Positions 11,201 to 30,244 of a DNA stretch of 64,000 bases are shown piece after piece; the first letter of the stretch is position 1, and every line of letters starts with the position of its first letter. The position numbers and the translations under genes were made by a program. The DNA is from a virus: positions 1 to 64,000 of the IMG/VR virus record IMGVR_UViG_3300017917_002116, one strand, 5' to 3'. The notes beneath the pieces are model-generated. The model did not search any database. It was not told the origin of the DNA and worked only from the letters and a program-made list of their open reading frames with translations.

Positions 11201-14200
11201 GCCTTATTAAGAAGTAAGTTTCTTTTAAATAACTGGTATCCCTATATATTTCCGGCTGGTAGGAGGAAGCCAAACCTATCTTTGCTAGACTTGCAGGAAC
11301 CCTACTGTTGAACTCTGTGGGCCATTGTCTAATTATAATTTTAGAATTGGCTGCTGTTACAAGATTTGCAAGTACAGTATCTATCTCTATGCTTGTGTAA
11401 TAACCTTCAATATCACTGATTAACTTGTAGTCTTTATTTCTAGTTAGAATTTTATTATTCCATTCTAGATGTAGTAATGTTTCTTTACCTGCTTCAAAAC
11501 TTATGGGCTCTAATGGACTACTCAATGAGCAGACATTTGTGCCCACACAATCAAATTCAATGCCATATGATTCTGTCCCCCAACCCAGCATGTTACTGTG
11601 GTACCAGAATGTTCTATTGTCTGTCTGATTTAGATATATTTCTTGTAACGCAAAATCTATTAGGCTAAGTGCATTAATTTCGTTTACATCATATTTTTTA
11701 ACAACTTTATCGAATTCAGACATAAGTCTGTTCATAAATTGGTCGTAGTGTTTGGCCTGTTTTATTAGTAGCTCACCGAAATCAAAAGGCAAACTTGTGG
11801 CTACTAGTGCGGTTTTTGCTAATGGATTGTTATGTTTTAATAATGTTCCGCCATTAAATTGTTGGAGAACAAAAAATTTATCCTGTATAGGGTCTATAAT
11901 TTCTCTTGCATTTGGAGCGGCACTGTTAACATACATACCGTGTTGATACAAAGAGTAATAATTTATATCACTCAATGTCTGATTTAATGGATTAAGAGTC
12001 AGCGTGAACGGTGCTGTTTTATTCTTGACACCATCGTAGTCATCTTTATAATAAATGTATGACTCTAGGCCTAATTTATCACCCGTTTTAACCTTTTTAG
12101 CCAAATTAGCAGACCCTGTTAATTTCTGCATGTAGCTAACATCGCCCGTATAGTCTGTTGTGTCTGTGATAATAAAATCATAATCCTGATACACCGGACT
12201 TGTTTTATCTAGATAGTATGCACTTGTGATAAAACGCCATTTTTCTATTGGCTTGACTAACGCTGATCTGAATCTATTTCCATAGAACCATGCCAGCCTT
12301 GTATTATCTCTGGCATATGGATTTTCTACGTATTCTGCGCCTATATCATATGTATAATTTAGATTTAATGTTATTACACCATTTGTGATGCCATTGTTTG
12401 TCACAAAGGGCGAACCTAATACATTATATCTTGATATATTATTATCAACATCTATAGAAAATAATGTTAGTGGGCGTTCTAGGTTGTGACAGACGATCTT
12501 AAATTCACCATTAGAAATCAGAGGTAATAAAGATTCTGTCAAATAGGCTGCTTTTCTAGTGGTAAACGGTACTAGGCCATAACCCTCTAACTCAAAATAA
12601 AATTTTAATTCTTTATTTGTGCTAGGGTAAACATGTATAGTATCAAATCCATTGGTAGGTGGCATGATATCTGTTGACCAGGCCTCATCCTCATATAATT
12701 CTATTTGCAAATCTTGCAGTTGTGGTGTTGCGTCCAAGCCCTGTCTTGCTGTATAGAAAGGTACCAGCCTGTTTCCTATCTTATAACCGTAGGGACCTTT
12801 TATTTCCTCCAGGGTTAGACCGTCGTTTGTGTATCTTGTAAACGTTGAATCTATATCTGTACGAAATTTAATTTGGTTGGAACCAACTGTCATAGGGTTG
12901 GTTTCATCCACAACATCAAAATCTATATTACTAACTGATATATTTTTTTGCAGAATTGGATCATGCGTACTACCTGGCTTAAAGCCAAGTATTGCACCAC
13001 CGCGGAAATTTATATTAGATATACTCTCTATGGCTGTGCCGTCACTCTTGAAAAATTCAAACAAAGGAGTTTGATTGGCCTCTGTTTTGTTTTGCGCCAA
13101 TTGCCATTGATTATTTTTAAAAATGACCCTGTGATACAAATGATCACCGAGTGATGTTATTAGTGCACCATCATCTGTAACAGAATTTGCCACATTAGTA
13201 GCTGTTAAAGCAACGTCTGTATTTCCAAGAACATAAATTCCAGGGGTTCTAGCAAAAACAACTCTGTCACCACTGTTAACATAATAACCTACAGTGTCGC
13301 GTACATTCTTTTTACCTATGTAGTCATTAATACTTCCTGGTAATATACTTTTAATATCACCAAGGTCTCTTGTTGGCCAGTTCCATAATTTAATTCTTCT
13401 AAAAATACTAATAATAGGGCGCCTTGCCTGATTATCTGGTCTGGCCAGTTTGTCTACATCTACGTCAAGAAATTTTGCTACTCGTCTAATTATGGCAATG
13501 TGATACCAGCGATCAAACACGCTCCAGGGATTTAGATCTGGGCAGTATCTTTCCATTACCACATACTCTGGCATTTTTAATCTTAATGCGCTGCCATCCC
13601 ATACTTCGCTGTCCCATTTGATAGCAGGAGGATCATCGTATGCATCTACTTTATCCCATGGACGTTTCTTCAAATAACTGGTTGGGATTCTTTCGTCGTA
13701 ATCTGCTACCTTGAATAATTTAATTTGATCACCAACACCATAGACATAGAATGCAACCGGTTGATCAGGATCTTCAGATCTATACGCTTCTTCTTGATGA
13801 CCAGTGAAGCATATTTTCATACCATTAAATAATTCTAATTCTTTACCTGTGGTATCATCAACTATTGTTGCATATGGTTTGTTGATAATATCATTATTGA
13901 TGGAATATTTCATGGTTCCATCGGGATTGGGATTTGCGTGCAAACACAAGACTGGTAGATCAGAATCCATCCAGTAATAAAGCTGATAATCTGTTAATTT
14001 TCTATAATTGATTGGCAGATCTAATGTAAGGATGCCGTCATCTAATTGAGTACCGTCCTTTAATTCAAGGCCTTTTATTTTGAAGTAGTTTTCAATATCA
14101 ACGTATGATGTTTTAGAAATAAATTCACTATCACTATTTTTAGAAATTATGGCCATGCCCGCCATGGCCTCTCTTCTTACCTGATCTGTTTCTTCTTTAA

Positions 14201-14399
14201 AAAATGTATCTGATTGCGCTGGTGCTGTTCTCGTACCATACATTTCTTTAAATGGCAACAATTGACCCTTAGATGTCATGACATCCAAAGTGGAATCCAA
14301 CATCTTTTGATTGGGTTCTGTCTGTAATACGTTAGGCAATAACTTGTGGTTTTTTACCTTGCGTGGTTTAAGTTGTGCTGGCTTTTTACTAATGCTCAT
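5286..14399 (-). CDS. giant baseplate wedge / virion structural protein (3037 aa)
   Basis: very long ORF coupled (ATGA overlap) to the gp6-like gene; DTDRPHTHPWEMLG motif and WD-rich patches as in giant wedge proteins of RaK2/GAP32-type jumbo phages (recognition, not search). Confidence 0.75.
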   Translation of the reverse strand: MSISKKPAQLKPRKVKNHKLLPNVLQTEPNQKMLDSTLDVMTSKGQLLPFKEMYGTRTAPAQSDTFFKEETDQVRREAMAGMAIISKNSDSEFISKTSYVDIENYFKIKGLELKDGTQLDDGILTLDLPINYRKLTDYQLYYWMDSDLPVLCLHANPNPDGTMKYSINNDIINKPYATIVDDTTGKELELFNGMKICFTGHQEEAYRSEDPDQPVAFYVYGVGDQIKLFKVADYDERIPTSYLKKRPWDKVDAYDDPPAIKWDSEVWDGSALRLKMPEYVVMERYCPDLNPWSVFDRWYHIAIIRRVAKFLDVDVDKLARPDNQARRPIISIFRRIKLWNWPTRDLGDIKSILPGSINDYIGKKNVRDTVGYYVNSGDRVVFARTPGIYVLGNTDVALTATNVANSVTDDGALITSLGDHLYHRVIFKNNQWQLAQNKTEANQTPLFEFFKSDGTAIESISNINFRGGAILGFKPGSTHDPILQKNISVSNIDFDVVDETNPMTVGSNQIKFRTDIDSTFTRYTNDGLTLEEIKGPYGYKIGNRLVPFYTARQGLDATPQLQDLQIELYEDEAWSTDIMPPTNGFDTIHVYPSTNKELKFYFELEGYGLVPFTTRKAAYLTESLLPLISNGEFKIVCHNLERPLTLFSIDVDNNISRYNVLGSPFVTNNGITNGVITLNLNYTYDIGAEYVENPYARDNTRLAWFYGNRFRSALVKPIEKWRFITSAYYLDKTSPVYQDYDFIITDTTDYTGDVSYMQKLTGSANLAKKVKTGDKLGLESYIYYKDDYDGVKNKTAPFTLTLNPLNQTLSDINYYSLYQHGMYVNSAAPNAREIIDPIQDKFFVLQQFNGGTLLKHNNPLAKTALVATSLPFDFGELLIKQAKHYDQFMNRLMSEFDKVVKKYDVNEINALSLIDFALQEIYLNQTDNRTFWYHSNMLGWGTESYGIEFDCVGTNVCSLSSPLEPISFEAGKETLLHLEWNNKILTRNKDYKLISDIEGYYTSIEIDTVLANLVTAANSKIIIRQWPTEFNSRVPASLAKIGLASSYQPEIYRDTSYLKETYFLIRHDGTRHCLVDGVDADGNPFNHVERLLYEYEKAVWSSIARDVKFLDRTNLYKNMPGGFRATRLNRNEVKEISNNEMYSWMQDIQLYTLANTTYDALDPFTFIYQIGTGDDGNTVIGSWRAIYNYYYDTDRPHTHPWEMLGYTLKPEWWDTYYSWTDPVKRAALETALRMGNVAEPPTIDCKPWFARTRNLAAPEEFPVDADGNLLPPTDLTWLTPFIEQLDVDWAPGYYSPYEQVFLSTQRGLASLIKTVYLVNPTEYVNTHWVPGKTYVDEWGQVLDKTTEFWLTPKIEHDYHRSEKTDGTLNFTAGIESLYSEFCVLINKDFKTEVYDVLNNTIINKEFLLSGFTNKNSVRIQSTSANSQSVSLFIPEENYQVRTLNHYPEREEFYSAMRIVWNGRGWNVYGFTNEQTHFTYYAPNPITTISAIKVGDFVIKEKNSYIKTPLILRYGTEFTDRQKLYDFIIGYGKYLEDTGFVFDDVELGDLRNWQLSGKQFIFWSNDPLEPGNYIDLNPAADGIVIKTYNNQLYNLTGTDVNVGQVVDRFSKPIFSKDLLVSRDEPFRVRTKNTNNPIYGIKLVFVTYESMVYLDSRSIFNDTYFLPEQGTTKRSFILGGKKSQEWTGKYYVPGYAFVNLDLIPNYDTLAEAGRNLLDIENVLNDNKLLEASRAQFGLNRNPELRQLFLQESNEVLFKNAITYNKGTKQVFNSLEPLTHKDGSRTIPYEEYMVRTGEFGNTKNIEYYEFQLRTADMILEPQVIKFERDVMPNDKFIYIKDDSSRWVYRPYGKTLRFNTYNNNHSKLPTVGPVIQGDTDYIIKNLEDIDKLYPEYEPLWSIKHYDETATYKPNDLVRRDGKLYYSLTTVSPNTWTNNSDKFNNIEEPYLPNILVENYGAKNPDLSDEGFSRFTPGTWQVLQTVDREVGVVEACPGVVDTSKARIYTNKPHKLAVGDKIVLVNVETKTASLNGIWTVESLDADDPDRKFYINAYVSETIRAGKLFTLKPVRFKSLDDLDKANDDTGYAWKKKFNPLTNATGAGYIEPPLTASGYSSVHPIAIVDDTTGQKLDSTSYDFGNYSVVSVRDTDKLTVKSEALAVNPDNIEHLIVYDYFNNRTLLKIDLYDPKKLKLHDALVKDIDIISRVDPAKYNRTTDSFKSVYTSTGWYEEQVGKRWWDTSSIKFTDYESGELADRVKNWGSTVDSKLPDIYEWTRSNVHPSKWADQTDSGGEAYADTSTGKAQYSWVEEQEFDNGTITTVYYFWVKNKNKIPEESKQKRIYSTSQLSKILLNPDAAGLAWWAPISKDAIVIRGVENYLNNDSTVIQIKMKDKGEDKHQQWMFISENNPVCVIPEWMHIRFRDSLATFASYRATIDYESYNSSKTYNQSAFVRYNDKIYVAKRKTTGTWNSSAWQLIANVTILDNEKFAYVNSKRVPDDKNLHPFNRYGNEIRPYLQSWFVNVLEARRTFIKRVNELLINMDLVNTIDTWDRRIGSANYVFNNDTLDMTKMWYYADFVSTKYDKTKPIVLLVEKQAEIYHAEVATGEYIKVLELGVIYEKTVDGGFDVVYRKNGTIQFVKDLYDKISLGGWDIRPWDNIPWDYDLNSQLAIIVEALRHDIFVKGYEVNYNNMMCTMLRYVMSDQINVNWVIKASTIQPYNLIGQNFEDPKDLERDNIEVLKTFYNSVKSYRDKNRSGNINKSTLEPAEFNFEEIRNFNIRLRYDRHNYGTPEVIGTTVTGTNFVPVGWDDPGWDGSSPFVNENADIADSYADITWEATQADFDKYLQKIYQGYSGLPAGDVQLILQGSTKSKYYRTANDEEAMDARISDNMIIEVTQGSLHTIREHYVNNTMSAFILSNVVQLAAPVALTDTHIALTNMENVPDATTENPGVLWIGNERITYTIKTATGISGLIRGTLGTTFRDFYSMSQPVYIVNAQTILHDYTPLQSLNNQVPFYNDVGETLENSKNPIANKIVNYMGS

Positions 14400-17300
14400 T
14401 TTCCAATCCTGATATTGCTATCTGTGATTTCATTAATAACGATAACGTCGTTTATAGTGGCTACACTTGTTACTACTTCGTCCCTGTCTGGTTGAATCTG
14501 GAATAGAGTACCAAACTTTTCATCTACACTAATGGGCACTATAACCACGCTGTTTATATCTGTTTTAAGTTGATTATGTATGTAGGCTGCAAGTTCAGTA
14601 AAGTAGAAGGTTTCGCCAAAATCAAAGTTGCCAGGTTCAAAGAATTCGTCTATGGCATTTATTACTCTGCTTTTTACTTCATTGTCGGTTAGCTTGCTCT
14701 TTGGATGTTTTACTACTTTGAATTGTGCCTGAAACTCTGGCTCTGCAAGTAGACCAAACAAGGGCATAAATTTTGCAGGATGGAATATTACCTCATCTGT
14801 TAGCATTTTAAAATCACCCAGACGCCTAAAACTTGCTCTAAGTTCTTCTGTAGTCTGAGGCAGTGGAATATCCAATAACGGATTATTCTTTTTCTTCCAA
14901 CTTACAAAATCATTATTATAAGATTTAGTTAACACATATGTATCGATAATGTTTGTAAGGCTAGGATTTAATGTTTGACCGACTGGAGTTTTATGTTGCC
15001 ATTTAAATGGTAATGTCATTTTACCCGACACTGTCTTAACCGCACTCTCTGGCGTAGACAGCTCTGCAGGAACAAGATAGCTAAAATCACCTTCATCGAA
15101 TTCAACTAGATTAATCATTGAATCTTGAACAAAATCTGCAAATACTTCAGGATCATCTGGAATCAGGTCGCCGTCCAGATCAAGTAATGTAACTTTGACC
15201 TTAGAAGGATCAGTGTAGCCATCATTATAAACATAGTACCCTGTTATCTTAGCAGTCAAGGTAGTTGCAAATTTATTGTTGCTTAATGTAAGAACATTGA
15301 TTGTGTCTAGACTTCTTGTTTTGATAGATGTATTAAATGATGGAAGGAAATTAATGTTATAAAATCTAATTAAATTTTCACTACCAAACACATATTCTAA
15401 TTGTCTTGTTGTAATAGTCCAACCATCGCTTTCTCTTTCCACAACCATGAGCCATGCAGAGCTATCTGATGCTGTATCGTAATCTGCTGTTAAATCGACA
15501 TCTGCTATATCGATTATAGACCAGGCTGGAATTAGATTATTAAATTTTAACCCAAAAGATTGTTTTAGCTTGAGTTTTTCAAGTATAAGGTTTCTTACTG
15601 CGTCATCGAATGTTCTAGGAAAGGCCGGTAATATTTCTGTAATTAAATCTGTGGTTAAGATTGGTTTACTTAATTCCACAACACCGTTGCCGTTCAATAA
15701 ACGGCCAGTGTAATTACTATCAGCATCCTCTATTCCTAAACCATCCCCCTTGATGTCTATAATAGTAGTCCATTCGTATGTGTTATCTTCTTTGACTAAT
15801 TTTAGTAGTGCACCAGGTCTAACATTTCTAAGAGGGCCGGCGGTCGTAAATCCTAATTTTTGTGGTGTGGGATCGCCATTAGATAAAGAAATATATCCGT
15901 TACTACCATTAAGGTCATTGTATGCAACACGCCAACGGAAGTCTATTAACTTATAGATATAAGAATCTACAGGATGAAACTGTCTGCCTGTGCCGTACTT
16001 AGTTCTAACTACACCAACAAATTTATTATTAATGACGTTTGTATAACTAAAAACTTCTCCATTTATACTCAATAGTCCGCCATCTATATCAAAACTATCA
16101 TAAGGGTCTGTAGTATTAATAGACGTTGCTTGTATCTCTGCAGGCGTTACGTTTTGATTAATTGCCTCTGCTAATTTTGTTTTATAGATTGTGTCGCCAA
16201 TTTTTACTGTAGGTATGGTTGTTGTAGACAACGTACCCTTAAGGTCTAATTTACCATAATAAAAATCTAATAGGCCGACATCACTTAATCTGCGTTCTAT
16301 GTGTTCGTTTAATAGGTCAATAATTCTAACATTAGAGTTGTCTGCTATATAGGTACTGTTGATTCCTTCTTCTCTATAGATATAACCATCATCTGCAAAT
16401 TCTATTAGCGGCCTACTTTTGCCAGTTGGATCCTTAAGATCAACATAGCGTGTGTGGCCACTAAATGTTCTGTTCTCAGATTTTAACAACAAGATGTCAT
16501 TATTAAGTGATCGCATAAAACCATTGTAGTCGTCGCCGGTGACCATGCGATTTTTACTGTAAAATGCCTGTGGTGCATTTTGCTTGATTTCATCTAGAGA
16601 TTCCGCAGGTAGGCCTGTTACCATGTTTTCCTGCAACTCTAAGGTCATGTATAAGGTCTGTCTTGTGTTATTGTCATCAATGTAAGAAATTTCAAATGTA
16701 GTACCTGATATTTCCCCTGCCTTAACACGTACATAGGCGTTCTCTGCCTGTCTGTACCAATAGCGCAGAGTGCCAGTTGGTGCATTGGTAAAGTCACCAT
16801 CACCAAATTTAATGCTTGTTGTATCAGTGTCGCTGTAGATTATTTCATATAGATTTTTGTCTGTATTGCCGTATGAATTTGCAACAAGGTTGGTGTAGTC
16901 TAGAGTGTTAGCACGTTTCCAGGATGTTAAAATGTTTCCATTGGAATCTATAGTTTGAACATAATAATCTTCTTCGCTGATATCAGAAGTTGCAAAGATA
17001 TCAATAACAAGGTTAGCCACTGGTGTTGTTAGATCAACAGTATTTTGTTGTATAAAACCTTGTTTTGCAAAAATAAAGAATCCAGTTTTAGCACTGCCCA
17101 CGCCTTTGCCATCGTTTCTATACAAGGTAGAGAATGCAGCATTGTTGTCAGGTTCCTTTTGCACAATAGCACCATTTTGATCTAGTTGCAGAGGCAATAG
17201 GTCAAAATTTAAATTAAATCCGTCTGCGGTTGCAGATATAGGATAACTGATCAAAGGCTCAGAATTGTCAAAGTCGTATATTTCATATAACACACCTGTG

Positions 17301-17842
17301 TCTGAGTTAGACAGGCGTTGTACTGGTGTGCCAAATTGTGTGAGCTTGTTAAATGCAGAATTAATTACCTTGATAAAACGCTCGTATTCTATTTCGCTAG
17401 GATCTGAGCCCCAGAATATTGTTTGATTGGCAAGGTTGTTGCCTGTACTGTCTAATATCTGTTCTGTTGTTTGAACGGCAATAACCTTAATAAGACCCTG
17501 TGCAGGGCGAACACGCTTGGGCTTATAGCTCAACATGCGAGCTATACGCAACACACTTTCACGTTTTTCTGCTGTATCTAAAACGTTCTCCCTTGCGTTC
17601 AAGTCCATTCTAAACGCAAGGTTTTGTCCCACATATGCTACAAGATCAAGCAGTGCGACAAACTCACTGTTCTGAATATAGTCGTTGAATTCTTCAGGGT
17701 AGTTGGCCTGCATGTATGCCACCATGGCCTGTCGTAAGGTGTCGAAATCATAGCTGGCGAACTCTGCGTTCTTAAAGGTGGTGTATACCAAGGACCAGTC
17801 TTCTGCTCCGTATAAATTTTCTTGACGTATTGCTTTAGACAT
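14396..17842 (-). CDS. baseplate wedge subunit, T4 gp6-like
   Basis: N-terminal YDFDTLR...EEFNDY...LLDL.AY.GQNLAFR.DLNARE..LDTAE.RESV.R.ARMLSY.PKR; ESLDEIK.NAP..F...NRMVT..DY. Confidence 0.85.
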   Translation of the reverse strand: MSKAIRQENLYGAEDWSLVYTTFKNAEFASYDFDTLRQAMVAYMQANYPEEFNDYIQNSEFVALLDLVAYVGQNLAFRMDLNARENVLDTAEKRESVLRIARMLSYKPKRVRPAQGLIKVIAVQTTEQILDSTGNNLANQTIFWGSDPSEIEYERFIKVINSAFNKLTQFGTPVQRLSNSDTGVLYEIYDFDNSEPLISYPISATADGFNLNFDLLPLQLDQNGAIVQKEPDNNAAFSTLYRNDGKGVGSAKTGFFIFAKQGFIQQNTVDLTTPVANLVIDIFATSDISEEDYYVQTIDSNGNILTSWKRANTLDYTNLVANSYGNTDKNLYEIIYSDTDTTSIKFGDGDFTNAPTGTLRYWYRQAENAYVRVKAGEISGTTFEISYIDDNNTRQTLYMTLELQENMVTGLPAESLDEIKQNAPQAFYSKNRMVTGDDYNGFMRSLNNDILLLKSENRTFSGHTRYVDLKDPTGKSRPLIEFADDGYIYREEGINSTYIADNSNVRIIDLLNEHIERRLSDVGLLDFYYGKLDLKGTLSTTTIPTVKIGDTIYKTKLAEAINQNVTPAEIQATSINTTDPYDSFDIDGGLLSINGEVFSYTNVINNKFVGVVRTKYGTGRQFHPVDSYIYKLIDFRWRVAYNDLNGSNGYISLSNGDPTPQKLGFTTAGPLRNVRPGALLKLVKEDNTYEWTTIIDIKGDGLGIEDADSNYTGRLLNGNGVVELSKPILTTDLITEILPAFPRTFDDAVRNLILEKLKLKQSFGLKFNNLIPAWSIIDIADVDLTADYDTASDSSAWLMVVERESDGWTITTRQLEYVFGSENLIRFYNINFLPSFNTSIKTRSLDTINVLTLSNNKFATTLTAKITGYYVYNDGYTDPSKVKVTLLDLDGDLIPDDPEVFADFVQDSMINLVEFDEGDFSYLVPAELSTPESAVKTVSGKMTLPFKWQHKTPVGQTLNPSLTNIIDTYVLTKSYNNDFVSWKKKNNPLLDIPLPQTTEELRASFRRLGDFKMLTDEVIFHPAKFMPLFGLLAEPEFQAQFKVVKHPKSKLTDNEVKSRVINAIDEFFEPGNFDFGETFYFTELAAYIHNQLKTDINSVVIVPISVDEKFGTLFQIQPDRDEVVTSVATINDVIVINEITDSNIRIGK

Positions 17843-18270: not shown

Positions 18271-18486
18271 ATGAACAAAAATGATTGGACTACAAAAGGC
18301 CTACCTAGTCAGGTAATGGTCCTGTGTGAAAACAATAACAAAGCCATGCCGGCAGACGTAATCAGCATGAACGAAAAAGTCCTTGTCGCTGCCATACAGG
18401 GCGTCAAAATCACCCTAACCAATCGAAATAAAACTGGCGTATATGTGGGTAAAATGGGTGGTCTTGATTTAGTTTACAAGTCATAA
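18271..18486 (+). CDS. hypothetical protein
   Basis: 71-aa ORF with AGGA SD. Confidence 0.7.
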   Translation: MNKNDWTTKGLPSQVMVLCENNNKAMPADVISMNEKVLVAAIQGVKITLTNRNKTGVYVGKMGGLDLVYKS

Positions 18487-18546
18487 ATAGCCTTGCGGTC
18501 GTGCCAGAAAAGAACTTTCGCTAACAGCATGGCCAGGAGAATTACT

Positions 18547-19401
18547 ATGAAAAAATCGGTTCTCGGTGTTTTAATTGGTGCTGCCGTATTAACAGGTTGC
18601 GCCAGTACTGACTATAGGTTGTATGCTGAAACTCAACAGCGCATTGCCACTGCACAGGCCCAGGCGCATGCCGCGGCTGAAACAGCACGATACGCTGCCC
18701 TGGCAGAAATCGCTAAAAATGGCGATGCCACAGCAAGAGTCGCAGCGGCTATGAGTCTAAGTTTAGGCGGCGGCGCAGGTGGTGCCCATACTGCTCAGCA
18801 GGCAGTTAACGTTAACCCACCAAAGAGTTGGGGTGATACTGCATTGCAATGGACTAGTGTATTGTTACCTAGCACCGTGCAGGCCTTGGGCATCGCAGCC
18901 AACCAGAGGGTTGCTATTACCCAGAGTAACAATCAGGCTGCTATTGCACAAAGTACAAATTCTACATTTGCTACTATGAGTACAAACATGGCTAAGTCAA
19001 ATACAGACATTGCTAATGCAGGTTTGACTGCTACAACAACCACAGCGGCCAATGGCTTGACTGCTGCCACTGCTATTGCGAACAGCGGTTTAACTGCCGT
19101 TACTACTACTGCGGCCAATGGTTTAACTGCAACTTCTGCTACTGCGGCTGCTGGTATCACTGGTATTGTCACAACTAGCGCAAATGGTTTGACTGCTGCC
19201 ACCAATATTAGTAAGGATGCGAATACTGCAATTACCAATGTAAGTAACGCTGCCAATACTAGCATACAGACTCTGACAAATCAGATGAAAGAGTTGCAAC
19301 CTAATATTACGACTACAACTACAACTACTAATAACACTACCAATAATAATAATCTAACCTGTCCTGCAGGTAAGACATTAACTAACGGTAGTTGCGTTTA
19401 A
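18547..19401 (+). CDS. lipoprotein with Ala/Thr/Asn-rich 11-residue repeats
   Basis: AGGAG SD then MKKSVLGVLIGAAVLTG-C signal peptide with lipobox; repeats of xAxNGLTAxTx. Confidence 0.8.
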   Translation: MKKSVLGVLIGAAVLTGCASTDYRLYAETQQRIATAQAQAHAAAETARYAALAEIAKNGDATARVAAAMSLSLGGGAGGAHTAQQAVNVNPPKSWGDTALQWTSVLLPSTVQALGIAANQRVAITQSNNQAAIAQSTNSTFATMSTNMAKSNTDIANAGLTATTTTAANGLTAATAIANSGLTAVTTTAANGLTATSATAAAGITGIVTTSANGLTAATNISKDANTAITNVSNAANTSIQTLTNQMKELQPNITTTTTTTNNTTNNNNLTCPAGKTLTNGSCV

Positions 19402-19403
19402 TG

Positions 19404-19434
19404 AAAAAAAGGAGCCTAGGCTCCTTTTATTTTT
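19404..19434. terminator. bidirectional intrinsic terminator
   Basis: perfect palindrome aaaaggagcctaggctcctttt (19407-19428) with A/T tracts between convergent genes. Confidence 0.85.
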
Positions 19435-19972
19435 AGGCTACTGCTTGGCGTCTGTCTGGCATACCCAAGTATTCTGCCCATGCTGGGTCCCTATATACAT
19501 AGGGGCTCATTTCTTTGACGGCCTTGACCATTTGCCAATAATTGGGTTCGTGTGGTTTGGTCAGTGGTTCCATGACCCTGGCGCCTTTAAGCCAGTTGCA
19601 GGTTGCACAACAGGTAACCATGTTACTCCAACCACTGCCTCCACCTAGGCTTTTTGGTTTTACGTGGTCAAGGGTTAGATCCTTTGCTGTGAATCTGTCA
19701 CCACAATATTGGCAAGTATAGTTATCCCTAAGGTATACCATTTTACGATTGAACAGTACCCTGTGCTTGGGTCTGACGTATTTTTTAGTCATAACTATGC
19801 TAGGCACTGGCATTTCTAACTTCTGACTGCGTACTAACCAGTCGTCGTGATTTTTGATAACCTGCACCTTATTTAGAAAAACCAATTTGATTGCTGTCTG
19901 CCAGTCAATTACACTGGGAGGCAACAAACAGAGTGGTTGTCCGTCATAGTTTAATAGTAATGTATCGCTCAT
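19433..19972 (-). CDS. HNH endonuclease (McrA-like)
   Basis: RDNYTCQYCG...LTLDHVKPKSLGG...W.NMVTCC..CN..KG. Confidence 0.9.
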   Translation of the reverse strand: MSDTLLLNYDGQPLCLLPPSVIDWQTAIKLVFLNKVQVIKNHDDWLVRSQKLEMPVPSIVMTKKYVRPKHRVLFNRKMVYLRDNYTCQYCGDRFTAKDLTLDHVKPKSLGGGSGWSNMVTCCATCNWLKGARVMEPLTKPHEPNYWQMVKAVKEMSPYVYRDPAWAEYLGMPDRRQAVA

Positions 19973-19992: not shown

Positions 19993-20021
19993 TTGACAAA
20001 AAGTCAAAACCATTATATAGT
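19993..20021 (+). promoter_or_regulatory. sigma70-type early promoter, followed by a late TAAATA at 20024-20029
   Basis: TTGACA-17 nt-TATAGT upstream of the DUF465/fpr/desaturase/ACP operon. Confidence 0.8.
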
Positions 20022-20062: not shown

Positions 20063-20272
20063 ATGGACATCGACTCAATTGACCATCACATCAGAACACT
20101 GACGAATCAGCACACTAAACTAGAGCGCGATTTGGATCAAATGCTTAAACAGAAAAGCTGGAACGAATACGATGCAGAAAACATCAAAAAGCAGAAATTA
20201 AAAGTCAAGGACGAATTGAGTAGAATGTATAGGTTGAGGCATGAAAAAATGAACGAAATAGAGTGGGATTAA
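20063..20272 (+). CDS. DUF465/YdcH-like small coiled-coil protein
   Basis: H..L...H..L+..L...(I/L)KKQKL.VKDE pattern; AGGAG SD. Confidence 0.7.
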   Translation: MDIDSIDHHIRTLTNQHTKLERDLDQMLKQKSWNEYDAENIKKQKLKVKDELSRMYRLRHEKMNEIEWD

Positions 20273-20273
20273 T

Positions 20274-20687
20274 GTGACTAGTATTGTGGACTTGGAACAG
20301 GCGGTAAGCCATCTTGAAATTATCAGCAAACAACTACATACTCAGGCTCTGGAATTTTACCCAGGGGAAGAATTTGCCACGTTAGACCGAGAAAACGTTG
20401 AAGTTCTCGAGGCAATCAGTGATATCAAACGATCATTAGATTTGATAAGGATAAACAACGGGCTAACCGATTTAGAGCACCAGAAACACAGGTTAGAAAC
20501 TAGGCAACAACAATTAGAGGATTTCTTTATGGAGACCTCAGATGATTTTCTCAACAACAGCCTAATGAGTCTGCACTCAGATATTATGCAGACAAAAAAA
20601 GAATTGCATATCAAAAGGCATCAAGAAGTAAATATAGTTTTGAACGAAACAACAAATAAACTTCTTGAACGATACCAATTGATATGA
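20274..20687 (+). CDS. hypothetical coiled-coil protein
   Basis: 137-aa ORF (GTG) coupled to both neighbours. Confidence 0.65.
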   Translation: MTSIVDLEQAVSHLEIISKQLHTQALEFYPGEEFATLDRENVEVLEAISDIKRSLDLIRINNGLTDLEHQKHRLETRQQQLEDFFMETSDDFLNNSLMSLHSDIMQTKKELHIKRHQEVNIVLNETTNKLLERYQLI

Positions 20688-21460
20688 GTTATACCACAGA
20701 AAAAGTTTTATCAGTTACGCACTGGAACGAGCGTCTTTTTAGCTTTACCTGCACTAGACCGCAGAGTTTTAGGTTTGTCAGTGGCATGTTTGTCATGATC
20801 GGTCTAATGGTAGACGGCAAACCTTTGCTACGTGCTTATAGCGTTGCGAGTCCTAGCTGGGACGAAACTCTGGAATTTTATAGCATCCATGTTGAAAATG
20901 GACCGCTGACCAGCCGACTAAACAAAATACAAGTGGGCGATGAGGTGCTGTTGGGCACCAAGCCCGTGGGCACCTTGTTAATGAACAACCTACTACCAGG
21001 AAAGAATTTATGGTGTCTGGCAACCGGCACTGGACTGGCACCATTTATGAGTGTTATGCGCGATCCAGAAATTCTGGAGGCCTATGACAAAATTATAGTA
21101 ACACACACCAATCGATATCACTCGGAATTTGCCTATCAGGATTATATTAAAAACGAGTTGCCAAATCATGAATATCTAGGCGAACTTATACGCGACAAAC
21201 TAGTCTACATCCCCACAGTTACTAGGGAATCACAACCAAAATTTGTCAGCGGCCGCATAACAGATCTGCTAAAACAGCCCGACTTCTATAGACTATATGG
21301 ACTGGAACAAATTAACATACACAAAGATCGTGTAATGATCTGTGGTAACCCTGATATGGTACACGAACTAGCAGATTGGTTCGAAGAGAAAAGCTGGAAG
21401 ATGGGCAGCGCCAGCAGTCCAGGGCACTTTGTCATTGAAAACGCTTTTGTTGACAGATGA
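20684..21460 (+). CDS. fpr: ferredoxin (flavodoxin)-NADP+ reductase, bacterial subclass I
   Basis: RAYSVAS FAD motif, GPLTSRL, ATGTGLAPF, MICGNP, C-terminal AFVDR. Confidence 0.95.
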   Translation: MSYTTEKVLSVTHWNERLFSFTCTRPQSFRFVSGMFVMIGLMVDGKPLLRAYSVASPSWDETLEFYSIHVENGPLTSRLNKIQVGDEVLLGTKPVGTLLMNNLLPGKNLWCLATGTGLAPFMSVMRDPEILEAYDKIIVTHTNRYHSEFAYQDYIKNELPNHEYLGELIRDKLVYIPTVTRESQPKFVSGRITDLLKQPDFYRLYGLEQINIHKDRVMICGNPDMVHELADWFEEKSWKMGSASSPGHFVIENAFVDR

Positions 21461-22287
21461 GGACAGGCTGGCACATGAAAAAAATACTCGGCTTATGGAC
21501 CAACCTAGGTGAAAACTTTAGACGCATATATGTGCCGGCGCACATACTTGCCTTTATTGCTATCGCAACGTTGTTCACTGGCCAGACCTCATTAACATGG
21601 CTACTGCTCATTTACCCAGCATGGTTTATTCTTGGTCACATTGGTTTTGGTATTTTTATTCACAAGTATTGGTGCCACAAAAGTTTTAAACCAAAGCAAT
21701 GGGTGGCTAGACTAGGAGCATTTCTGGGTCTGTTTGCCGGTACGGGGAGTCCTGTAATGGTCAAAGCCATACATATAGGAGAACATCATCCGCACACTGA
21801 CACCCAAGATGACCCACATACGCCACTAAAAGGTTTTTGGTGGAGCTATTTCATGTGGTTGAATCATAGGTGGGATTTAAAAAAGATATGGATCGTCAAA
21901 GATCTAATGAAAGACCCGTTTATAAAATTCTACCACGTACACTACTATAAAATTTATTGGGGTATGTGGTTCTTATTAGCCTTGATTGATTGGAGATTGG
22001 CGGTATTTACAATAAGTTTTACCACCGTTATAGAATTCCACCTGTCAGGTATCGTTAATAGCTTCGGTCATATTGCACACAAAGGAAGCTATCAAAACTA
22101 TCCAGACTGTGGCGACAACAGCCAAAACATTCCATGGGTTAGTTGGCTAACATTGGGTCTGGGATTACACAACAATCATCACGGAGAACCATGGAATTAT
22201 AATTATGCAAGAAAGCCAGGAGAATTTGATTTTGCTGGCTGGTTCGTACCGCTAATTTCTATAGATAAAGAGAAAAAGAATGGATAA
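21457..22287 (+). CDS. membrane fatty-acid desaturase (delta-9 / DesC-OLE1-like)
   Basis: His boxes HKYWCH, HIGEHH, HNNHH; DTQDDPHTP, GFWWS, VNSFGH; hydrophobic TM segments; alternative start ATG 21475. Confidence 0.9.
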   Translation: MRTGWHMKKILGLWTNLGENFRRIYVPAHILAFIAIATLFTGQTSLTWLLLIYPAWFILGHIGFGIFIHKYWCHKSFKPKQWVARLGAFLGLFAGTGSPVMVKAIHIGEHHPHTDTQDDPHTPLKGFWWSYFMWLNHRWDLKKIWIVKDLMKDPFIKFYHVHYYKIYWGMWFLLALIDWRLAVFTISFTTVIEFHLSGIVNSFGHIAHKGSYQNYPDCGDNSQNIPWVSWLTLGLGLHNNHHGEPWNYNYARKPGEFDFAGWFVPLISIDKEKKNG

Positions 22288-22516
22288 CTTAAATCAAAAG
22301 GTCATTGACCTAGTAGCAGAGCACTTTAACGTTAAACCTAGTATTATTAATAACGATACTAAATTTATCTCCGACTTGAACGGTGATAGTCTAGATGTCG
22401 TAGAACTTATACTTTTAGTCGAGGACAAGTTTAATGTTATTATTGACGAAGACATAGCAGAAACTATGATCACTGTTGGCTCGTTGATTGATTTCTTAGA
22501 GAAATCTACAGCATAA
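22280..22516 (+). CDS. acpP: acyl carrier protein
   Basis: DLNGDSLDVVELIL phosphopantetheine site; acidic, 78 aa; ITVG..IDF. Confidence 0.92.
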   Translation: MDNLNQKVIDLVAEHFNVKPSIINNDTKFISDLNGDSLDVVELILLVEDKFNVIIDEDIAETMITVGSLIDFLEKSTA

Positions 22517-23261
22517 ATTTTTCAGCCAGTCGCCTTGGGTCATCATTAATGCCCGATAGGTTAACGTTAATGGTCAGCCTGTCTAGTGGCCCGTGATTCC
22601 ATATGCTATGGAATTTTCCAGTATCAATAAAATACCAATGACCATCAGCAGGAATTTGGAAACGAGTTCCTGCTATTTCATACCAAGCATTATCTCCGCC
22701 AAATAGTGTGGCATGTAGCCGTATTCCTCGATAATAAGGGAAATCAACATGGCTGCTTAAATAGCCTTTATTTTTTAATTCCAACAAGCTGGCCTTGGTT
22801 ATGTTTGACTTAAATTTTGAAAATACGGTTTGAAAATAACTTGTATAAATTTCTGTTGGTTCGACAAAGTCGTTTTCGATTAGTTCAGGAAGTTTTTTGT
22901 TCATGTATAAATCTTCTGGGAACACTTCGCCTAATTCAGCGTCCCTTCTGACAAAATGATCTTCCAGTGGCGCTGCTGAATTATTTCTAGACAAAAATCC
23001 CAGGCCTTTATATCTATCGTATTTTTTACCTGAACTATTTCTATTAATACTCTTGGTACTATGTTTTTCTAGTAGAGTCCGGACTTCTTCTCGCATCTTT
23101 ATCAAGTCAAAACTATAATAAGATGGTAGCCTAAAAAATACATAATCTAATTCTTTTTGATCCTTGTACCATTCGTCTAAGGACTTGCTATACTTCACAG
23201 TATCAATACTATCCCCCCAGGGTTCATTAATATTGATTTTCATATTTTTTAATATGCTCAA
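22506..23261 (-). CDS. 2OG-Fe(II) oxygenase, Asp/Asn beta-hydroxylase-like
   Basis: HVD...RLH...IPADG..YFIDTG.FHSIWNHG..DR cupin/HxD..H pattern; true start may be ATG 23243. Confidence 0.75.
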   Translation of the reverse strand: MSILKNMKININEPWGDSIDTVKYSKSLDEWYKDQKELDYVFFRLPSYYSFDLIKMREEVRTLLEKHSTKSINRNSSGKKYDRYKGLGFLSRNNSAAPLEDHFVRRDAELGEVFPEDLYMNKKLPELIENDFVEPTEIYTSYFQTVFSKFKSNITKASLLELKNKGYLSSHVDFPYYRGIRLHATLFGGDNAWYEIAGTRFQIPADGHWYFIDTGKFHSIWNHGPLDRLTINVNLSGINDDPRRLAEKFML

Positions 23262-24114
23262 AGAAAGGCGCCAGTTTGAAGTCAGGTGTTAGTCTGCCTC
23301 GTCTATTGTTGCCTGGATCGGGCAGATCTGAACCCGCAGGGCTCCAGTCTGTAATTTTGACCCAGGATGTAGTATACTTTTTATCTGCTTCAACGGGAAA
23401 AAATATTACATTCTTTTCATCATAGCCATTGATCTTATTCTGATTCTGCGCCCAAGAGGCATCAACTCCCAATTGATCACAGACTAGGCTAACCATTTCG
23501 TCCCAGGTCCAATTTTCGTGTTTCTCAAGGCTATATCTTCCTACTTGTCCTACGTTGCGGAATCTTAAAATAGCCTTATTATTAAACCCATTTACCAATT
23601 CTAATAGGCGTTTTGGTACGTTGTTGTTGACACCTTTTTGCAGTATGGCGCCCACGTTAACATTCATCTTTACTGCTAGACATTCTTCCAGGGCTTTTAC
23701 TTTGCGTTCGGCCCAGGCGCCGCCACCATCCATAACTTTGTAGATTTCATTGTCATCTGCACCGTTCATGCTTAGGTAGATACTACGCATGCCGGCGTCT
23801 GCTAATTCTCTCGCATAACCTGGTCTCGCAACCATGAGTCCATTGGTCATCATTGTTGGTCGGTGGCCACGTATTTTGATGTTGTGTACAATGTCCACCA
23901 AATCGATTCGAACGGTTGGTTCTCCACCAATCAATCTGATTTCTGCTTTGTTGGGAATTTGATCCAAAACTTCATAAAATCGAGCCACATCCAGATCCGG
24001 ACCGATTCTATTAGGTGTATAACAATTGGCACATTCCATGTTGCATTTGTGCGTTACGTCCACAAATATACTATAGAAATGGTTGTCTTTTGGTTCAAGT
24101 TCGTAGTAGTTCAT
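23227..24114 (-). CDS. radical SAM enzyme (MoaA-like core)
   Basis: CNMECANC CxxxCxxC motif, GGEPT, TNG, LADAG...YLS; no C-terminal Cys-rich twitch/SPASM cluster. Confidence 0.9.
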   Translation of the reverse strand: MNYYELEPKDNHFYSIFVDVTHKCNMECANCYTPNRIGPDLDVARFYEVLDQIPNKAEIRLIGGEPTVRIDLVDIVHNIKIRGHRPTMMTNGLMVARPGYARELADAGMRSIYLSMNGADDNEIYKVMDGGGAWAERKVKALEECLAVKMNVNVGAILQKGVNNNVPKRLLELVNGFNNKAILRFRNVGQVGRYSLEKHENWTWDEMVSLVCDQLGVDASWAQNQNKINGYDEKNVIFFPVEADKKYTTSWVKITDWSPAGSDLPDPGNNRRGRLTPDFKLAPFFEHIKKYENQY

Positions 24115-28021: not shown

Positions 28022-30244
28022 TTAGGTTACCCTCACATTTTTACGTATTACTTCCATCTGCTGTGCCACGGTTCTTGTGGTTTCAGTCTTATTACCACCA
28101 AACTGTCTCATGTCAGGATATGCCCATTGCGGGTTGCTCTTGTAGAAATCGCTAACTGTTTGATTAGGATTGGTTCTAGATGCTTCAACCAGTGCGGGAT
28201 ATGCCGCTTGACCATGCCACCATGTTCCACGTGCGTCTGCCATGTCATATCTATGGTTGGGATTACCCCATGCATTGGCAACTTTTTCTTGATTGGAGTT
28301 AACAAGATTTTTTGTTGATTGTCTAAACAAGGCCTCATCAGCCTTTTGTGCCTGCTCGCTTGTGTGTGATTTACCATCAGCAGATACAAGGTCATCCAAT
28401 TTTGGCGGTCTATTGGGGTAACCTATAGCGTCGCGTTCTGTTGGTGTCATTGAATTCCAGGCTTGCTCTCTTGCTCGATCGCTCATGCCATAATAACCGC
28501 CTATGGTAGACGCATTGTCCAATGACGTGCGTAGCATTCTACCGTTGCCGCTTTCTTTTTCTCTTGTTATTCTTTCAAATTCATTAGCATTAAATGCACC
28601 CACATTACTACCACTGTATGGATTTAGATCTACAGGTCTGTTTAATATTAGCGAATTAGTATTTGATACACTGCCTGCACCTGCATTGCCAGACGGAGCT
28701 GTTGTTGGTGCTGTTGCGCCGCCAACAGGATTGCCCATGGCATCAACTGCGGGTTGTTCTGTACCATAGCCAACTGTGCCTTCATTGTTTGGCACAGGAT
28801 TGTATGATTGTTTCATGGTCTGAACCATTTCTTCTGTCATACGTGCTTCTTCGATCTTAAATTCTTCTTCGCTAATTTCACCTCTCTTGTAACGCTTGAG
28901 GTTTTCCTGCATGCGCTTGCGCCACTTCATGTACCATTCATATTTTTCTTTACTTGTTGGTCTATTTGCACCGCAGCTTGGTGGATAACTTTCGTCTTCT
29001 TCCTCTTCGGGTTTTTTCTCCTTGTCAGGATCCTTCTTCATGTCGGCAGCACTTTGTTTTTGTATTTTACCTGAATGTGCTCTCCACTTTTCATGCTCAG
29101 GTACCACAGTACAAATACTTTCAGTTACTTCATCATTATTAACCAACTGATTAATATAAATTTGATCTGTCAACTCTGCAGGAGGCCCGTTCATGTCAAT
29201 TCTACCAGCTTCTTCCACGTGGGATACTTCACTGTAGATATAACTTGACTCCATGCTTGTTATGGTGGTGTCTACGCCTGCATAGGTTGCTATATTGGTT
29301 CCGGCTTCTAGTGTGACATCATCTTCTTCTGCTTTAATGTTTACGCCTATACCAGCTTCTATGTTGACATACTCGTCTGCACGTAGGTTGATATTTTTTT
29401 CAGAATGTATGCTCACAGAGTTACTTGCGTATATGCACACTTGACCATCAACGTTCATTTCAAGCCAATTTTCTCCATCTCTACTGATCATGTAGATGTG
29501 GCCCTGCGTGTCATCTAACAACAACTGTGTTCCGTTACGTGTTCTAATTCTTATTTGCCTGTTATTGCCGTCTTTGTCTCCATCGTCAATATAAAACTGC
29601 TGTTGCTGAGGACTCAGTATACCCATGACCTTGCTAGGGCTTTCTCGTTCTACACTGGTGCTGGTCAATCCACGCAGGCCATCTTCATCTAAGCCCTGTT
29701 TTACCAAGGCATTATACAAAGGCTTGTGTAAGACGTATAATTGTAAATCTGGATTTCTATCCTTTTTGTTCTTAGGTGCTGCTGGTTTTGGTGCACCATC
29801 ATATGTGCGTTTTGCTGGAATTCCAGGTATACTAATCTGTGTTCCCCGCTGATACAAGCAGGCGAACCAATAACCTAATTCTATTCTACCACCCGCAAAC
29901 GCAACAAGAACTCTAGTGTCTATGTCTGGAGGCACGCCCCACCAACCGTAGCTTTTAATGGTGTCTTCGTATTCTGTGACATTTAACCCCTGATCAAATA
30001 AACTTGTGCTGCCTGCAAATGGGCTTGCATAGCTTACTGTAATCCAGTTTACTTTGTCTCTAGGATCTCCACCAAACTCGGGAATAAAAACTTCTAGTCT
30101 ACCAAAATAAAGAGGGTCATAGTTATCCTTGACTATGCCCACATGAACGCCAACCACGCTGCTTATGCCGCGTTTGTCTGTGGAATTTTTATTAAATTCT
30201 TGCGGTGTGTAATTTTGGCCAGAAGGGTTTACTATCTTACTCAT
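28022..30244 (-). CDS. baseplate hub/spike protein, T4 gp5/VgrG-like
   Basis: OB-fold GIVKDNYDP...GRLEVFIP, SYGWW.VPPD, beta-helix repeats, GRIDMNGP, VPEHE.W..H; extra C-terminal domain. Confidence 0.85.
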   Translation of the reverse strand: MSKIVNPSGQNYTPQEFNKNSTDKRGISSVVGVHVGIVKDNYDPLYFGRLEVFIPEFGGDPRDKVNWITVSYASPFAGSTSLFDQGLNVTEYEDTIKSYGWWGVPPDIDTRVLVAFAGGRIELGYWFACLYQRGTQISIPGIPAKRTYDGAPKPAAPKNKKDRNPDLQLYVLHKPLYNALVKQGLDEDGLRGLTSTSVERESPSKVMGILSPQQQQFYIDDGDKDGNNRQIRIRTRNGTQLLLDDTQGHIYMISRDGENWLEMNVDGQVCIYASNSVSIHSEKNINLRADEYVNIEAGIGVNIKAEEDDVTLEAGTNIATYAGVDTTITSMESSYIYSEVSHVEEAGRIDMNGPPAELTDQIYINQLVNNDEVTESICTVVPEHEKWRAHSGKIQKQSAADMKKDPDKEKKPEEEEDESYPPSCGANRPTSKEKYEWYMKWRKRMQENLKRYKRGEISEEEFKIEEARMTEEMVQTMKQSYNPVPNNEGTVGYGTEQPAVDAMGNPVGGATAPTTAPSGNAGAGSVSNTNSLILNRPVDLNPYSGSNVGAFNANEFERITREKESGNGRMLRTSLDNASTIGGYYGMSDRAREQAWNSMTPTERDAIGYPNRPPKLDDLVSADGKSHTSEQAQKADEALFRQSTKNLVNSNQEKVANAWGNPNHRYDMADARGTWWHGQAAYPALVEASRTNPNQTVSDFYKSNPQWAYPDMRQFGGNKTETTRTVAQQMEVIRKNVRVT

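Follow-up and report, generated by a model that had tools for sequence, protein, structure and literature searches.

A candidate acyl-tailoring cassette in a T4-like jumbo phage and its mostly viral relatives

The lipid-metabolism genes that phages carry as auxiliary cargo are poorly understood, and one locus raises the question of what a virus could make with a membrane desaturase, an acyl carrier protein (ACP), a hydroxylase and a radical S-adenosylmethionine (SAM) enzyme encoded next to a ferredoxin/flavodoxin-NADP+ reductase (Fpr). The locus lies in a 64,000-nt stretch of DNA (the window), which is bases 1-64000 of the 115,420-bp IMG/VR virus record IMGVR_UViG_3300017917_002116. A sequence-only reading of the window had proposed that the five genes form a near self-contained pathway that modifies an ACP-bound acyl chain or a membrane lipid. 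Judged by gene content and order, four of them (desaturase, ACP, hydroxylase and radical SAM) are co-inherited across many large phages, whereas Fpr is a lineage-specific insertion. We hold, with moderate confidence, that an ACP-centred acyl-tailoring cassette recurs, mostly in viruses, and that the locus is one variant of it, here with its own electron feeder. Literature searches found no published description of the cassette.

A four-gene module in convergent layout

All seven open reading frames (ORFs) that had been predicted at the locus are present where they were placed, and each matches the family proposed for it:

20063-20272, plus strand: DUF465 small coiled-coil protein, 69 amino acids (aa), first in the operon (Pfam PF04325, 3.1e-6)
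20274-20687, plus strand: o137, helical protein, 137 aa
20684-21460, plus strand: Fpr, 258 aa (FAD_binding_6 and NAD_binding_1; NF008178, 1.8e-42)
21457-22287, plus strand: membrane desaturase, 276 aa (PF00487, 1.4e-14)
22280-22516, plus strand: ACP, 78 aa (TIGR00517, 72.0 bits)
22506-23243, minus strand: AspH-like hydroxylase, 245 aa from the ATG at 23243 (PF05118, 8.6e-4)
23227-24114, minus strand: radical SAM enzyme, 295 aa (PF04055, 1.1e-18, 68 bits)

The junctions read from the DNA show ATGA overlaps at o137/Fpr and at Fpr/desaturase and an 8-nt overlap between the desaturase and ACP genes. The overlapping plus-strand genes and the 11-nt 3' overlap of the ACP and hydroxylase genes are thus as first described, and no terminator-like site was found at the ACP/hydroxylase convergence point, again as claimed. 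Two start codons call for small corrections. The hydroxylase ORF can be extended back to a TTG at 23261, but because its homologues begin MK-I/T-N..PWGD the ATG at 23243 is the most likely start, which makes the overlap with the radical SAM gene 17 nt and not 35. The desaturase may start at an alternative ATG at 21475 (270 aa), which follows an AGGA and agrees with the homologues no less well.

Profile searching with the radical SAM family recovered 53 viral and 6 cellular loci. One cellular locus, a 58-residue partial match in a Methylophilaceae metagenome-assembled genome (MAG), was left out; the other five are four MAGs of Bdellovibrionales or Bacteriovoracaceae and one of Balneola. When the ORFs of all loci were clustered without prior labels, the commonest companions were the desaturase, the ACP and the hydroxylase, followed by families of 190 aa and 340 aa, a B12-type radical SAM family and a GNAT-fold protein of 206-219 aa. 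Removal of identical copies left 45 distinct radical SAM sequences, of which 28 have the desaturase, 22 the ACP, 19 the hydroxylase, 11 the GNAT-fold protein and 8 the B12-type radical SAM. Nearly all module partners lie within 3 kb of the radical SAM gene, and many of the reading frames overlap or abut. Among the 12 loci in which the radical SAM protein is at least 57% identical to that of the window and both genes are present, the desaturase-ACP gap is -43 to -3 nt in 10; in the other two it is about 306 nt, with a gene for AcpS, a holo-ACP synthase, in between. The gap widens to 379 to 2054 nt in more distant loci. In distant branches (radical SAM identity 37-40%) the ACP gene follows the radical SAM gene by 0-10 nt, even where no desaturase is near. 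Four viral contigs found through the desaturase all carry the four genes in the same convergent layout, and Fpr is in none of them.

The proposed grouping therefore holds beyond chance for desaturase, ACP, hydroxylase and radical SAM, which are not scattered independently in relatives, and does not hold for Fpr. Conserved synteny of this kind marks the four genes, by the standard of comparative genomics, as one functional unit. Bdellovibrionales MAGs carry the desaturase, radical SAM and hydroxylase trio among ordinary chromosomal genes (ion channel, Crp regulator, CBS protein and hibernation factor).

An alternative would be that the genes are independent auxiliary genes, Fpr and the desaturase boosting delta-9 desaturation of host membrane lipids to adjust fluidity, and the ACP, hydroxylase and radical SAM genes being unrelated island neighbours. 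Reductase/desaturase operons such as DesA3 with Rv3230c and desCB count for this view, as does the sharing of the island with unrelated HNH nuclease and DNA ligase genes. Fpr is also common in viral contigs (360 stretches), and single acyl-CoA desaturase genes have been reported from freshwater phages (PMC7678222; PMC7029224). Strongly against it, the synteny is kept as radical SAM identity falls from 91% to about 40%, and in bacteria as well. The few-base gene overlaps, a desaturase in a module-specific clade at no more than 33% identity to ordinary desaturases, and the fact that Fpr adjoins no other copy of this desaturase point the same way, and we consider independent genes very unlikely.

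Several relatives have further genes. The chromosomal clusters of desaturase, radical SAM and hydroxylase genes in Bdellovibrionales MAGs span L006:8500-12400 and L009:9200-16400; the latter also holds two AspH-like paralogues, an SDR gene and a B12-type radical SAM gene homologous to one beside the phage cassette in loci L004 and L063. These chromosomal clusters have no ACP gene nearby. An expanded cassette, mostly on one strand, occupies L027:2700-15500 in a 228-kb viral record and comprises an ATP-grasp ligase, three desaturase paralogues, two B12-type radical SAM enzymes (one KedN5-like), ACP, AspH-like and radical SAM proteins and a Rieske oxygenase. NCBIfam typing of the associated B12-type radical SAM, GNAT and other neighbour families gave nothing above cut-off. 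Of the first two genes of the window operon, that for the DUF465 protein has orthologues at 65-68% identity in the same position in L012 and L018; its conservation is confined to the closest relatives, and it is probably not a module member. o137 has weak orthologues (24-27% identity) in L002 and L018.

The carrier protein and its putative tailoring enzymes

Catalytic residues are intact in the desaturase, hydroxylase, radical SAM enzyme, ACP and Fpr. The ACP scores above the curated cut-off of TIGR00517 (72.0 against 70.45 bits), has the serine motif GDSLD and matches AcpP structures in the Protein Data Bank (PDB) down to 2e-14, which identifies it, at the level of sequence, as an AcpP-type acyl carrier protein. 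The ACP and the radical SAM protein are the sole members of their families in the 115-kb contig. The presence of a carrier protein argues for an ACP-tethered acyl substrate, and its likeness to AcpP makes loading by the host fatty-acid synthase plausible. The earlier observation that the window has no acyl ligase, ferredoxin or phosphopantetheinyl transferase (PPTase) extends to the whole contig, in which adenylation and condensation domains and PF00501 (AMP-binding) are also missing; since CheckV puts the completeness of the contig at 32%, such absences do not show absence from the phage. Some relatives have a 99-aa AcpS between the desaturase and ACP genes, whose PDB profile matches are all holo-ACP synthases (best 2e-7), and relatives G001, G003 and G004 encode an AcpS at another genomic site. 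Sampling, or else the use of host AcpS, probably accounts for the missing PPTase. Other ACP modules were noted in freshwater jumbophages in a 2026 study (PMC13573597).

In alignment with human SCD1 (4zyo), the desaturase has HKYWCH, HIGEHH, NSFGH and HNNHH at the positions of the di-iron ligands, with HxxxHH (HIGEHH) where SCD1 has HxxHH, and hydropathy windows suggest two hydrophobic hairpins, within residues 23-68 and 170-192. All of its close relatives, at 59-78% identity, come from metagenomes or viruses; the next are at most 41% identical, and proteins labelled stearoyl-CoA desaturase at most 33%. In a quick, midpoint-rooted tree, in which DesC, OLE1 and JamB references are not included, it groups with phage and metagenome sequences in a clade of 39 rows (SH-aLRT 99) and does not cluster with the sequences labelled stearoyl-CoA (delta-9) desaturase, which form a separate clade. 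By these comparisons it is an SCD-type membrane di-iron enzyme of a phage-specific clade.

The nearest described logic is that of the JamABC and TtuABC systems for terminal alkynes, which consist of an acyl-ACP synthetase, a membrane desaturase/acetylenase and a dedicated ACP. As in the window, a PF00487 desaturase is coupled to a dedicated small ACP, and this gene coupling implies desaturation of a carrier-tethered chain. The window set differs in lacking a JamA-type ligase, in adding a radical SAM enzyme and an AspH-type hydroxylase, and in being phage-borne.

The hydroxylase scores 19.6 bits against PF05118, under the cut-off of 22.6, and orthologues at 33-38% identity reach 40-43 bits (down to 4e-11). 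Residues H165-x-D167 and H212, which would form the metal triad, and R222, the putative 2-oxoglutarate-binding arginine, are invariant in 13 aligned sequences. The AlphaFold2 model (pLDDT 85) has the double-stranded beta-helix fold, and its best PDB matches are 7v4m and 7v4f (7v4m at 3.6e-12; TM 0.86 on target, 22% identity), a small-molecule beta-hydroxylase from a nucleoside-antibiotic pathway; proline hydroxylases and AspH come next. No hydrophobic 19-residue window, and hence no membrane segment, was found in it. The model thus points to a soluble AspH-type beta-hydroxylase, which would presumably use 2-oxoglutarate. Family (PF05118), fold and the HxD, H and R motif are shared with LpxO, OlsC and AspH; the window enzyme differs in being unanchored, in scoring under the Pfam cut-off and in having a small-molecule beta-hydroxylase as its nearest structure. 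A membrane anchor is a feature of LpxO, and assignment as an LpxO-like membrane hydroxylase is not supported; with no anchor and with that best structural match, an LpxO-like role on lipid is not established. Additional neighbour families of 167-250 aa align their HxD and H with those of the hydroxylase in hhalign at a probability of only 2-18%, and are possible cupin paralogues.

The structural match of the hydroxylase bears on whether the carrier holds a fatty acid at all. An aminoacyl group or another small acid, beta-hydroxylated and modified by the radical SAM enzyme much as nucleoside or peptide antibiotics are tailored, could instead yield a diffusible signal, a toxin or an anti-defence compound. 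This fits the nucleoside-antibiotic enzyme as nearest structure, the additions in larger cassettes (ATP-grasp ligase, Rieske oxygenase, B12-type radical SAM enzymes and an AMP-binding fragment) and a GMP-reductase-like gene that abuts the radical SAM gene in one subgroup. However, the carrier scores as the AcpP of fatty-acid synthesis above a curated cut-off, neither window nor contig holds an adenylation or condensation domain, the most constant partner is a fatty-acid desaturase, and a related cassette of Fpr and radical SAM genes includes a FabA/FabZ-like dehydratase. We regard a non-fatty-acid product as rather improbable.

The radical SAM protein has CxxxCxxC at C24, C28 and C31, its only invariant cysteines, and a conserved C-terminal domain (RFRNVGQxGRY, KITDWSP, RRGRxT and APFFEH). 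Its NCBIfam scores of 62-92 bits lie far under the cut-offs of 284-490, and its best PDB profile matches, GDGT-MAS/Tes (5e-23) and MoaA (2e-19), cover the core only; the auxiliary clusters and extra domains of both are missing. The auxiliary-cluster features of MoaA, of SPASM/twitch maturases and of Tes are all absent. The name MoaA, which JGI gives to homologues, is rejected on the missing auxiliary-cluster cysteines and the low scores. Clusters of the family in the Atlas are 74-100% viral. These sequence features indicate a single-cluster enzyme of an undescribed, mostly viral family, and the module thus holds a radical SAM family without a characterised member.

A role in protein or peptide modification has to be weighed here. 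The hydroxylase and the radical SAM enzyme would act on a protein of the host or of the virion (baseplate or fibre), and the ACP, together with the GNAT in relatives, would supply a lipidating acyl group tailored by the desaturase. The founding activity of the AspH family is protein Asp/Asn hydroxylation and AspH is among the fold matches of the hydroxylase; the radical SAM protein also matches the peptide maturases PqqE and SkfB; GNATs often acylate proteins; and the cassette has the baseplate wedge gene on one side and the hub gene on the other. Pelagimyophages carry radical SAM cassettes in a host-recognition cluster (PMC7029224), and cyanophage multi-dioxygenase clusters have been proposed to modify peptides (PMC2938197). 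Against this stand the absence of any precursor-peptide-like gene conserved with the module, a radical SAM protein without SPASM or twitch cysteines, the occurrence of the trio in Bdellovibrionales chromosomes away from virion genes, and the pairing of an SCD-type membrane desaturase with an AcpP-type carrier, both lipid hallmarks. Such a role is in our view an improbable one.

Fpr in the place of a GNAT-fold gene

The closest syntenic relative is L018, a 233-kb record with the order HNH, DUF465, o149, a 207-aa protein, desaturase, and ACP facing hydroxylase and radical SAM, then ligase. Pfam, PHROGs and NCBIfam gave no match for the 207-aa family; the AlphaFold2 model of the relatives' 206-219-aa protein (pLDDT 88) has a GNAT fold and matches many GNATs at Foldseek probability 1.0. 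The window Fpr occupies the stretch that in L018 holds the GNAT-fold gene together with an ORF of 113 aa on the opposite strand, which separates that gene from the o137 homologue. Profile searching for the GNAT family found nothing in the 115-kb contig, and Fpr stands beside the module in no other locus examined. On this comparison Fpr is an insertion specific to the lineage, standing in the relatives' GNAT slot, and not a module member.

The window cassette and the recurrent phage cassette with GNAT thus occupy the same slot, from HNH/DUF465 to DNA ligase, and have orthologous desaturases (59-78% identity), ACPs, hydroxylases (57-67%) and radical SAM enzymes (57-91%) in the same convergent layout. 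The window differs in having Fpr for GNAT, a sigma-70-like promoter, and no ATAAATA in front. Because Fpr is an insertion and both the GNAT hand-off enzyme and the relatives' AcpS are missing here, the description of the cassette as near self-contained does not stand.

Fpr itself is a plain two-domain protein. Pfam matches to both FNR domains extend across residues 14-227, and the alignment to NF008178 runs from 3 to 251 over 248 profile positions, with 145 bits to this E. coli-type model, under its equivalog cut-off of 390. Over its full length it is 55-58% identical to proteins of Burkholderiales and Alphaproteobacteria that carry the annotation Fpr (from Cupriavidus, Janthinobacterium, Roseomonas and Ancylobacter), and four metagenomic relatives reach 80-93%. 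The FAD motif RAYS, the NADP motif GTGLAP and AFVDR are present at positions invariant in the alignment with bacterial Fpr; the C-terminal A-F-V is what we take to be the signature of the Azotobacter/Pseudomonas Fpr subclass. By homology it is a bacterial-type ferredoxin/flavodoxin-NADP+ reductase.

Scanning viral contigs for close relatives of Fpr returned none, and a profile scan returned 360 matching stretches. In 22 of the best 80 of these, a B12-type radical SAM gene lies directly downstream, starting 200-300 bp on; a desaturase, ACP or AspH-like gene is near Fpr in none of the 80. Of the loci examined, this phage alone pairs Fpr with a desaturase; in other phages Fpr accompanies radical SAM genes and not desaturases. 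A complete phage of 342.6 kb with direct terminal repeats (G004) carries the radical SAM, ACP and desaturase module and, elsewhere in its genome, Fpr (45% identical), flavodoxin (at 68.9 kb), SufE and AcpS.

In E. coli, radical SAM clusters are reduced by NADPH, Fpr and flavodoxin, and membrane desaturases take two electrons per turnover and require a donor chain. On these grounds Fpr is most simply read as a recruit that supplies the redox enzymes of the module with electrons, and as its client the comparison of loci favours the radical SAM enzyme at least as much as the desaturase. FNR-family reductases are co-transcribed with SCD-type desaturases in Mycobacterium tuberculosis (DesA3/Rv3230c) and Pseudomonas aeruginosa (desCB), a gene pairing that the window shares; those reductases carry their own [2Fe-2S] domain, whereas the window Fpr needs a separate flavodoxin or ferredoxin. 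Comparable systems are the E. coli Fpr-flavodoxin pair that reduces radical SAM enzymes and the phage cassettes of Fpr and radical SAM genes. In contrast to the phage cassettes of Fpr with B12-type enzymes, the radical SAM protein near the window Fpr belongs to another family, has one cluster only and lacks a B12 domain. Judging by how often Fpr is wired to radical SAM genes in phages, viruses seem actively to ensure that oxygen-sensitive radical enzymes are supplied with reducing power. This wider association, the replacement of GNAT by Fpr and the lack of a late-type promoter motif are the new elements here.

Two further arrangements were seen around phage Fpr genes. A different phage cassette, seen at L097:3345-12150 and L145, has a SPASM radical SAM gene, two small ORFs, Fpr, two radical SAM genes of 595-637 aa, a FabA/FabZ-like dehydratase gene and a gene for a 386-aa protein. 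In the complete phage G004 (loci L070, G004:311000-328000, and L066), AcpS, GreA/GreB-like, cell-wall hydrolase, inosine monophosphate dehydrogenase/GMP-reductase-like, SufE and Fpr genes lie within 8 kb. Matches to Fpr labelled 'phage' among deposited genomes are evidently bacterial contigs.

A proposed route and the genomic setting

If the acyl-tailoring reading is right, the phage ACP would be phosphopantetheinylated by phage or host AcpS, and the host fatty-acid synthase would charge the holo-ACP with an acyl chain. This tethered chain would gain a double bond from the desaturase, a hydroxyl group from the hydroxylase and a C-H functionalisation from the radical SAM enzyme, with Fpr using NADPH to keep host flavodoxin or ferredoxin reduced, so that electrons reach both the radical SAM [4Fe-4S] cluster and the desaturase di-iron centre. 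In relatives the GNAT would then move the chain to an amine acceptor; in the window phage, a host acyltransferase might off-load it into envelope lipids, or an enzyme encoded in the unsampled two thirds of the phage genome might do so.

Several observations weigh against this route. No loading enzyme or thioesterase is present. Fpr has neither an Fe-S nor a flavodoxin domain, the 115-kb contig has no flavodoxin gene, and no electron carrier for Fpr is encoded in the sampled DNA; the link between Fpr and the desaturase comes, moreover, from this one genome and, possibly, its sister contigs. SCD-type desaturases usually act on acyl-CoA or acyl-lipids and not on acyl-ACP. The hydroxylase, as modelled, best matches an enzyme whose substrate is an intermediate of a nucleoside antibiotic, and the substrates of its family namesake are proteins. 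The radical SAM protein matches lipid (Tes), cofactor (MoaA) and peptide (PqqE and SkfB) enzymes about equally, through the core only. Finally, the cassette sits inside a baseplate gene block.

A bolder version would have the single-cluster radical SAM family perform new chemistry on the ACP-tethered chain, such as a C-C link, a ring or a branch at a carbon that is unactivated or allylic. With the cassette, large phages and a few predatory bacteria would produce a new class of lipid that remodels the envelope of the infected or attacked cell, and this phage would have dropped the GNAT off-loader and added an NADPH-driven feeder, so that the product enters host lipid pathways. We think this version unlikely.

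On the acyl-tailoring reading, dozens of large aquatic phages and some Bdellovibrio-like predators would have a carrier-based tailoring set in common. The Fpr swap offers a natural experiment in which a version with GNAT hand-off can be compared with one that has its own electron supply. Once identified, the product might prove to be a lipid or acyl metabolite not seen before and point to a new phage route to changing the host envelope.

The source is an uncultured T4-like jumbo phage. Its contig encodes T4-type structural proteins (baseplate wedge, hub, portal and major head), and the portal is about 50% identical to the portals of jumbo phages Atu_ph07, Phosso and PA5oct. As a general caveat, host DNA can occur in viral-contig collections. 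Among 50,697 deposited phage genomes, megablast and tblastn gave no match to the region or to the desaturase, and one weak match to the radical SAM protein. PHROGs gave the window proteins generic names only. The cassette sits in a variable island, bounded by the baseplate wedge and hub genes, that also contains HNH endonuclease and ATP-dependent DNA ligase genes. Features around it are:

14396-17842: baseplate wedge gene
19433-19972, minus strand: free-standing HNH endonuclease gene
19993-20021, plus strand: sigma-70-like promoter candidate ahead of the plus-strand operon (TTGACA, 17 nt, TATAGT; 11 of 12 matches)
20040-20012, minus strand: divergent sigma-70-like promoter candidate of the HNH gene (12 of 12 matches)
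28022-30244: baseplate hub gene

The element at 19993-20021 presumably functions as the promoter of the plus-strand operon. The motif ATAAATA is depleted in the window, with 9 sites (18226, 18483, 34705, 40695, 43508, 49426, 49624, 56416 and 59762) where about 21 would be expected. Most of these sites are found shortly before a gene, in several cases a structural one (portal and head decoration), a pattern that fits a T4-like late promoter motif with purifying avoidance elsewhere. Between 19.9 and 24.3 kb, the cassette region, there is no such late-type motif. Late expression of the window cassette is accordingly not supported, and with no ATAAATA in the island this copy does not look late-expressed.

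Three further features were noted upstream of the operon. A bidirectional terminator-like hairpin with a perfect 9-bp stem lies at 19407-19428, between o302 and the HNH gene. A 3037-aa ORF (5286-14399, minus strand) lies directly upstream of the baseplate wedge gene. The ORF at 18493-19401 (plus strand), which has no Pfam, PHROG or NCBIfam match, begins with a classic lipoprotein signal and lipobox (MKKSVLGVLIGAAVLTGC), continues in long Ala/Thr/Asn-rich repeats and has an ATAAATA directly upstream, at 18483-18489; it is possibly a late phage lipoprotein, spanin-like or acting in surface exclusion.

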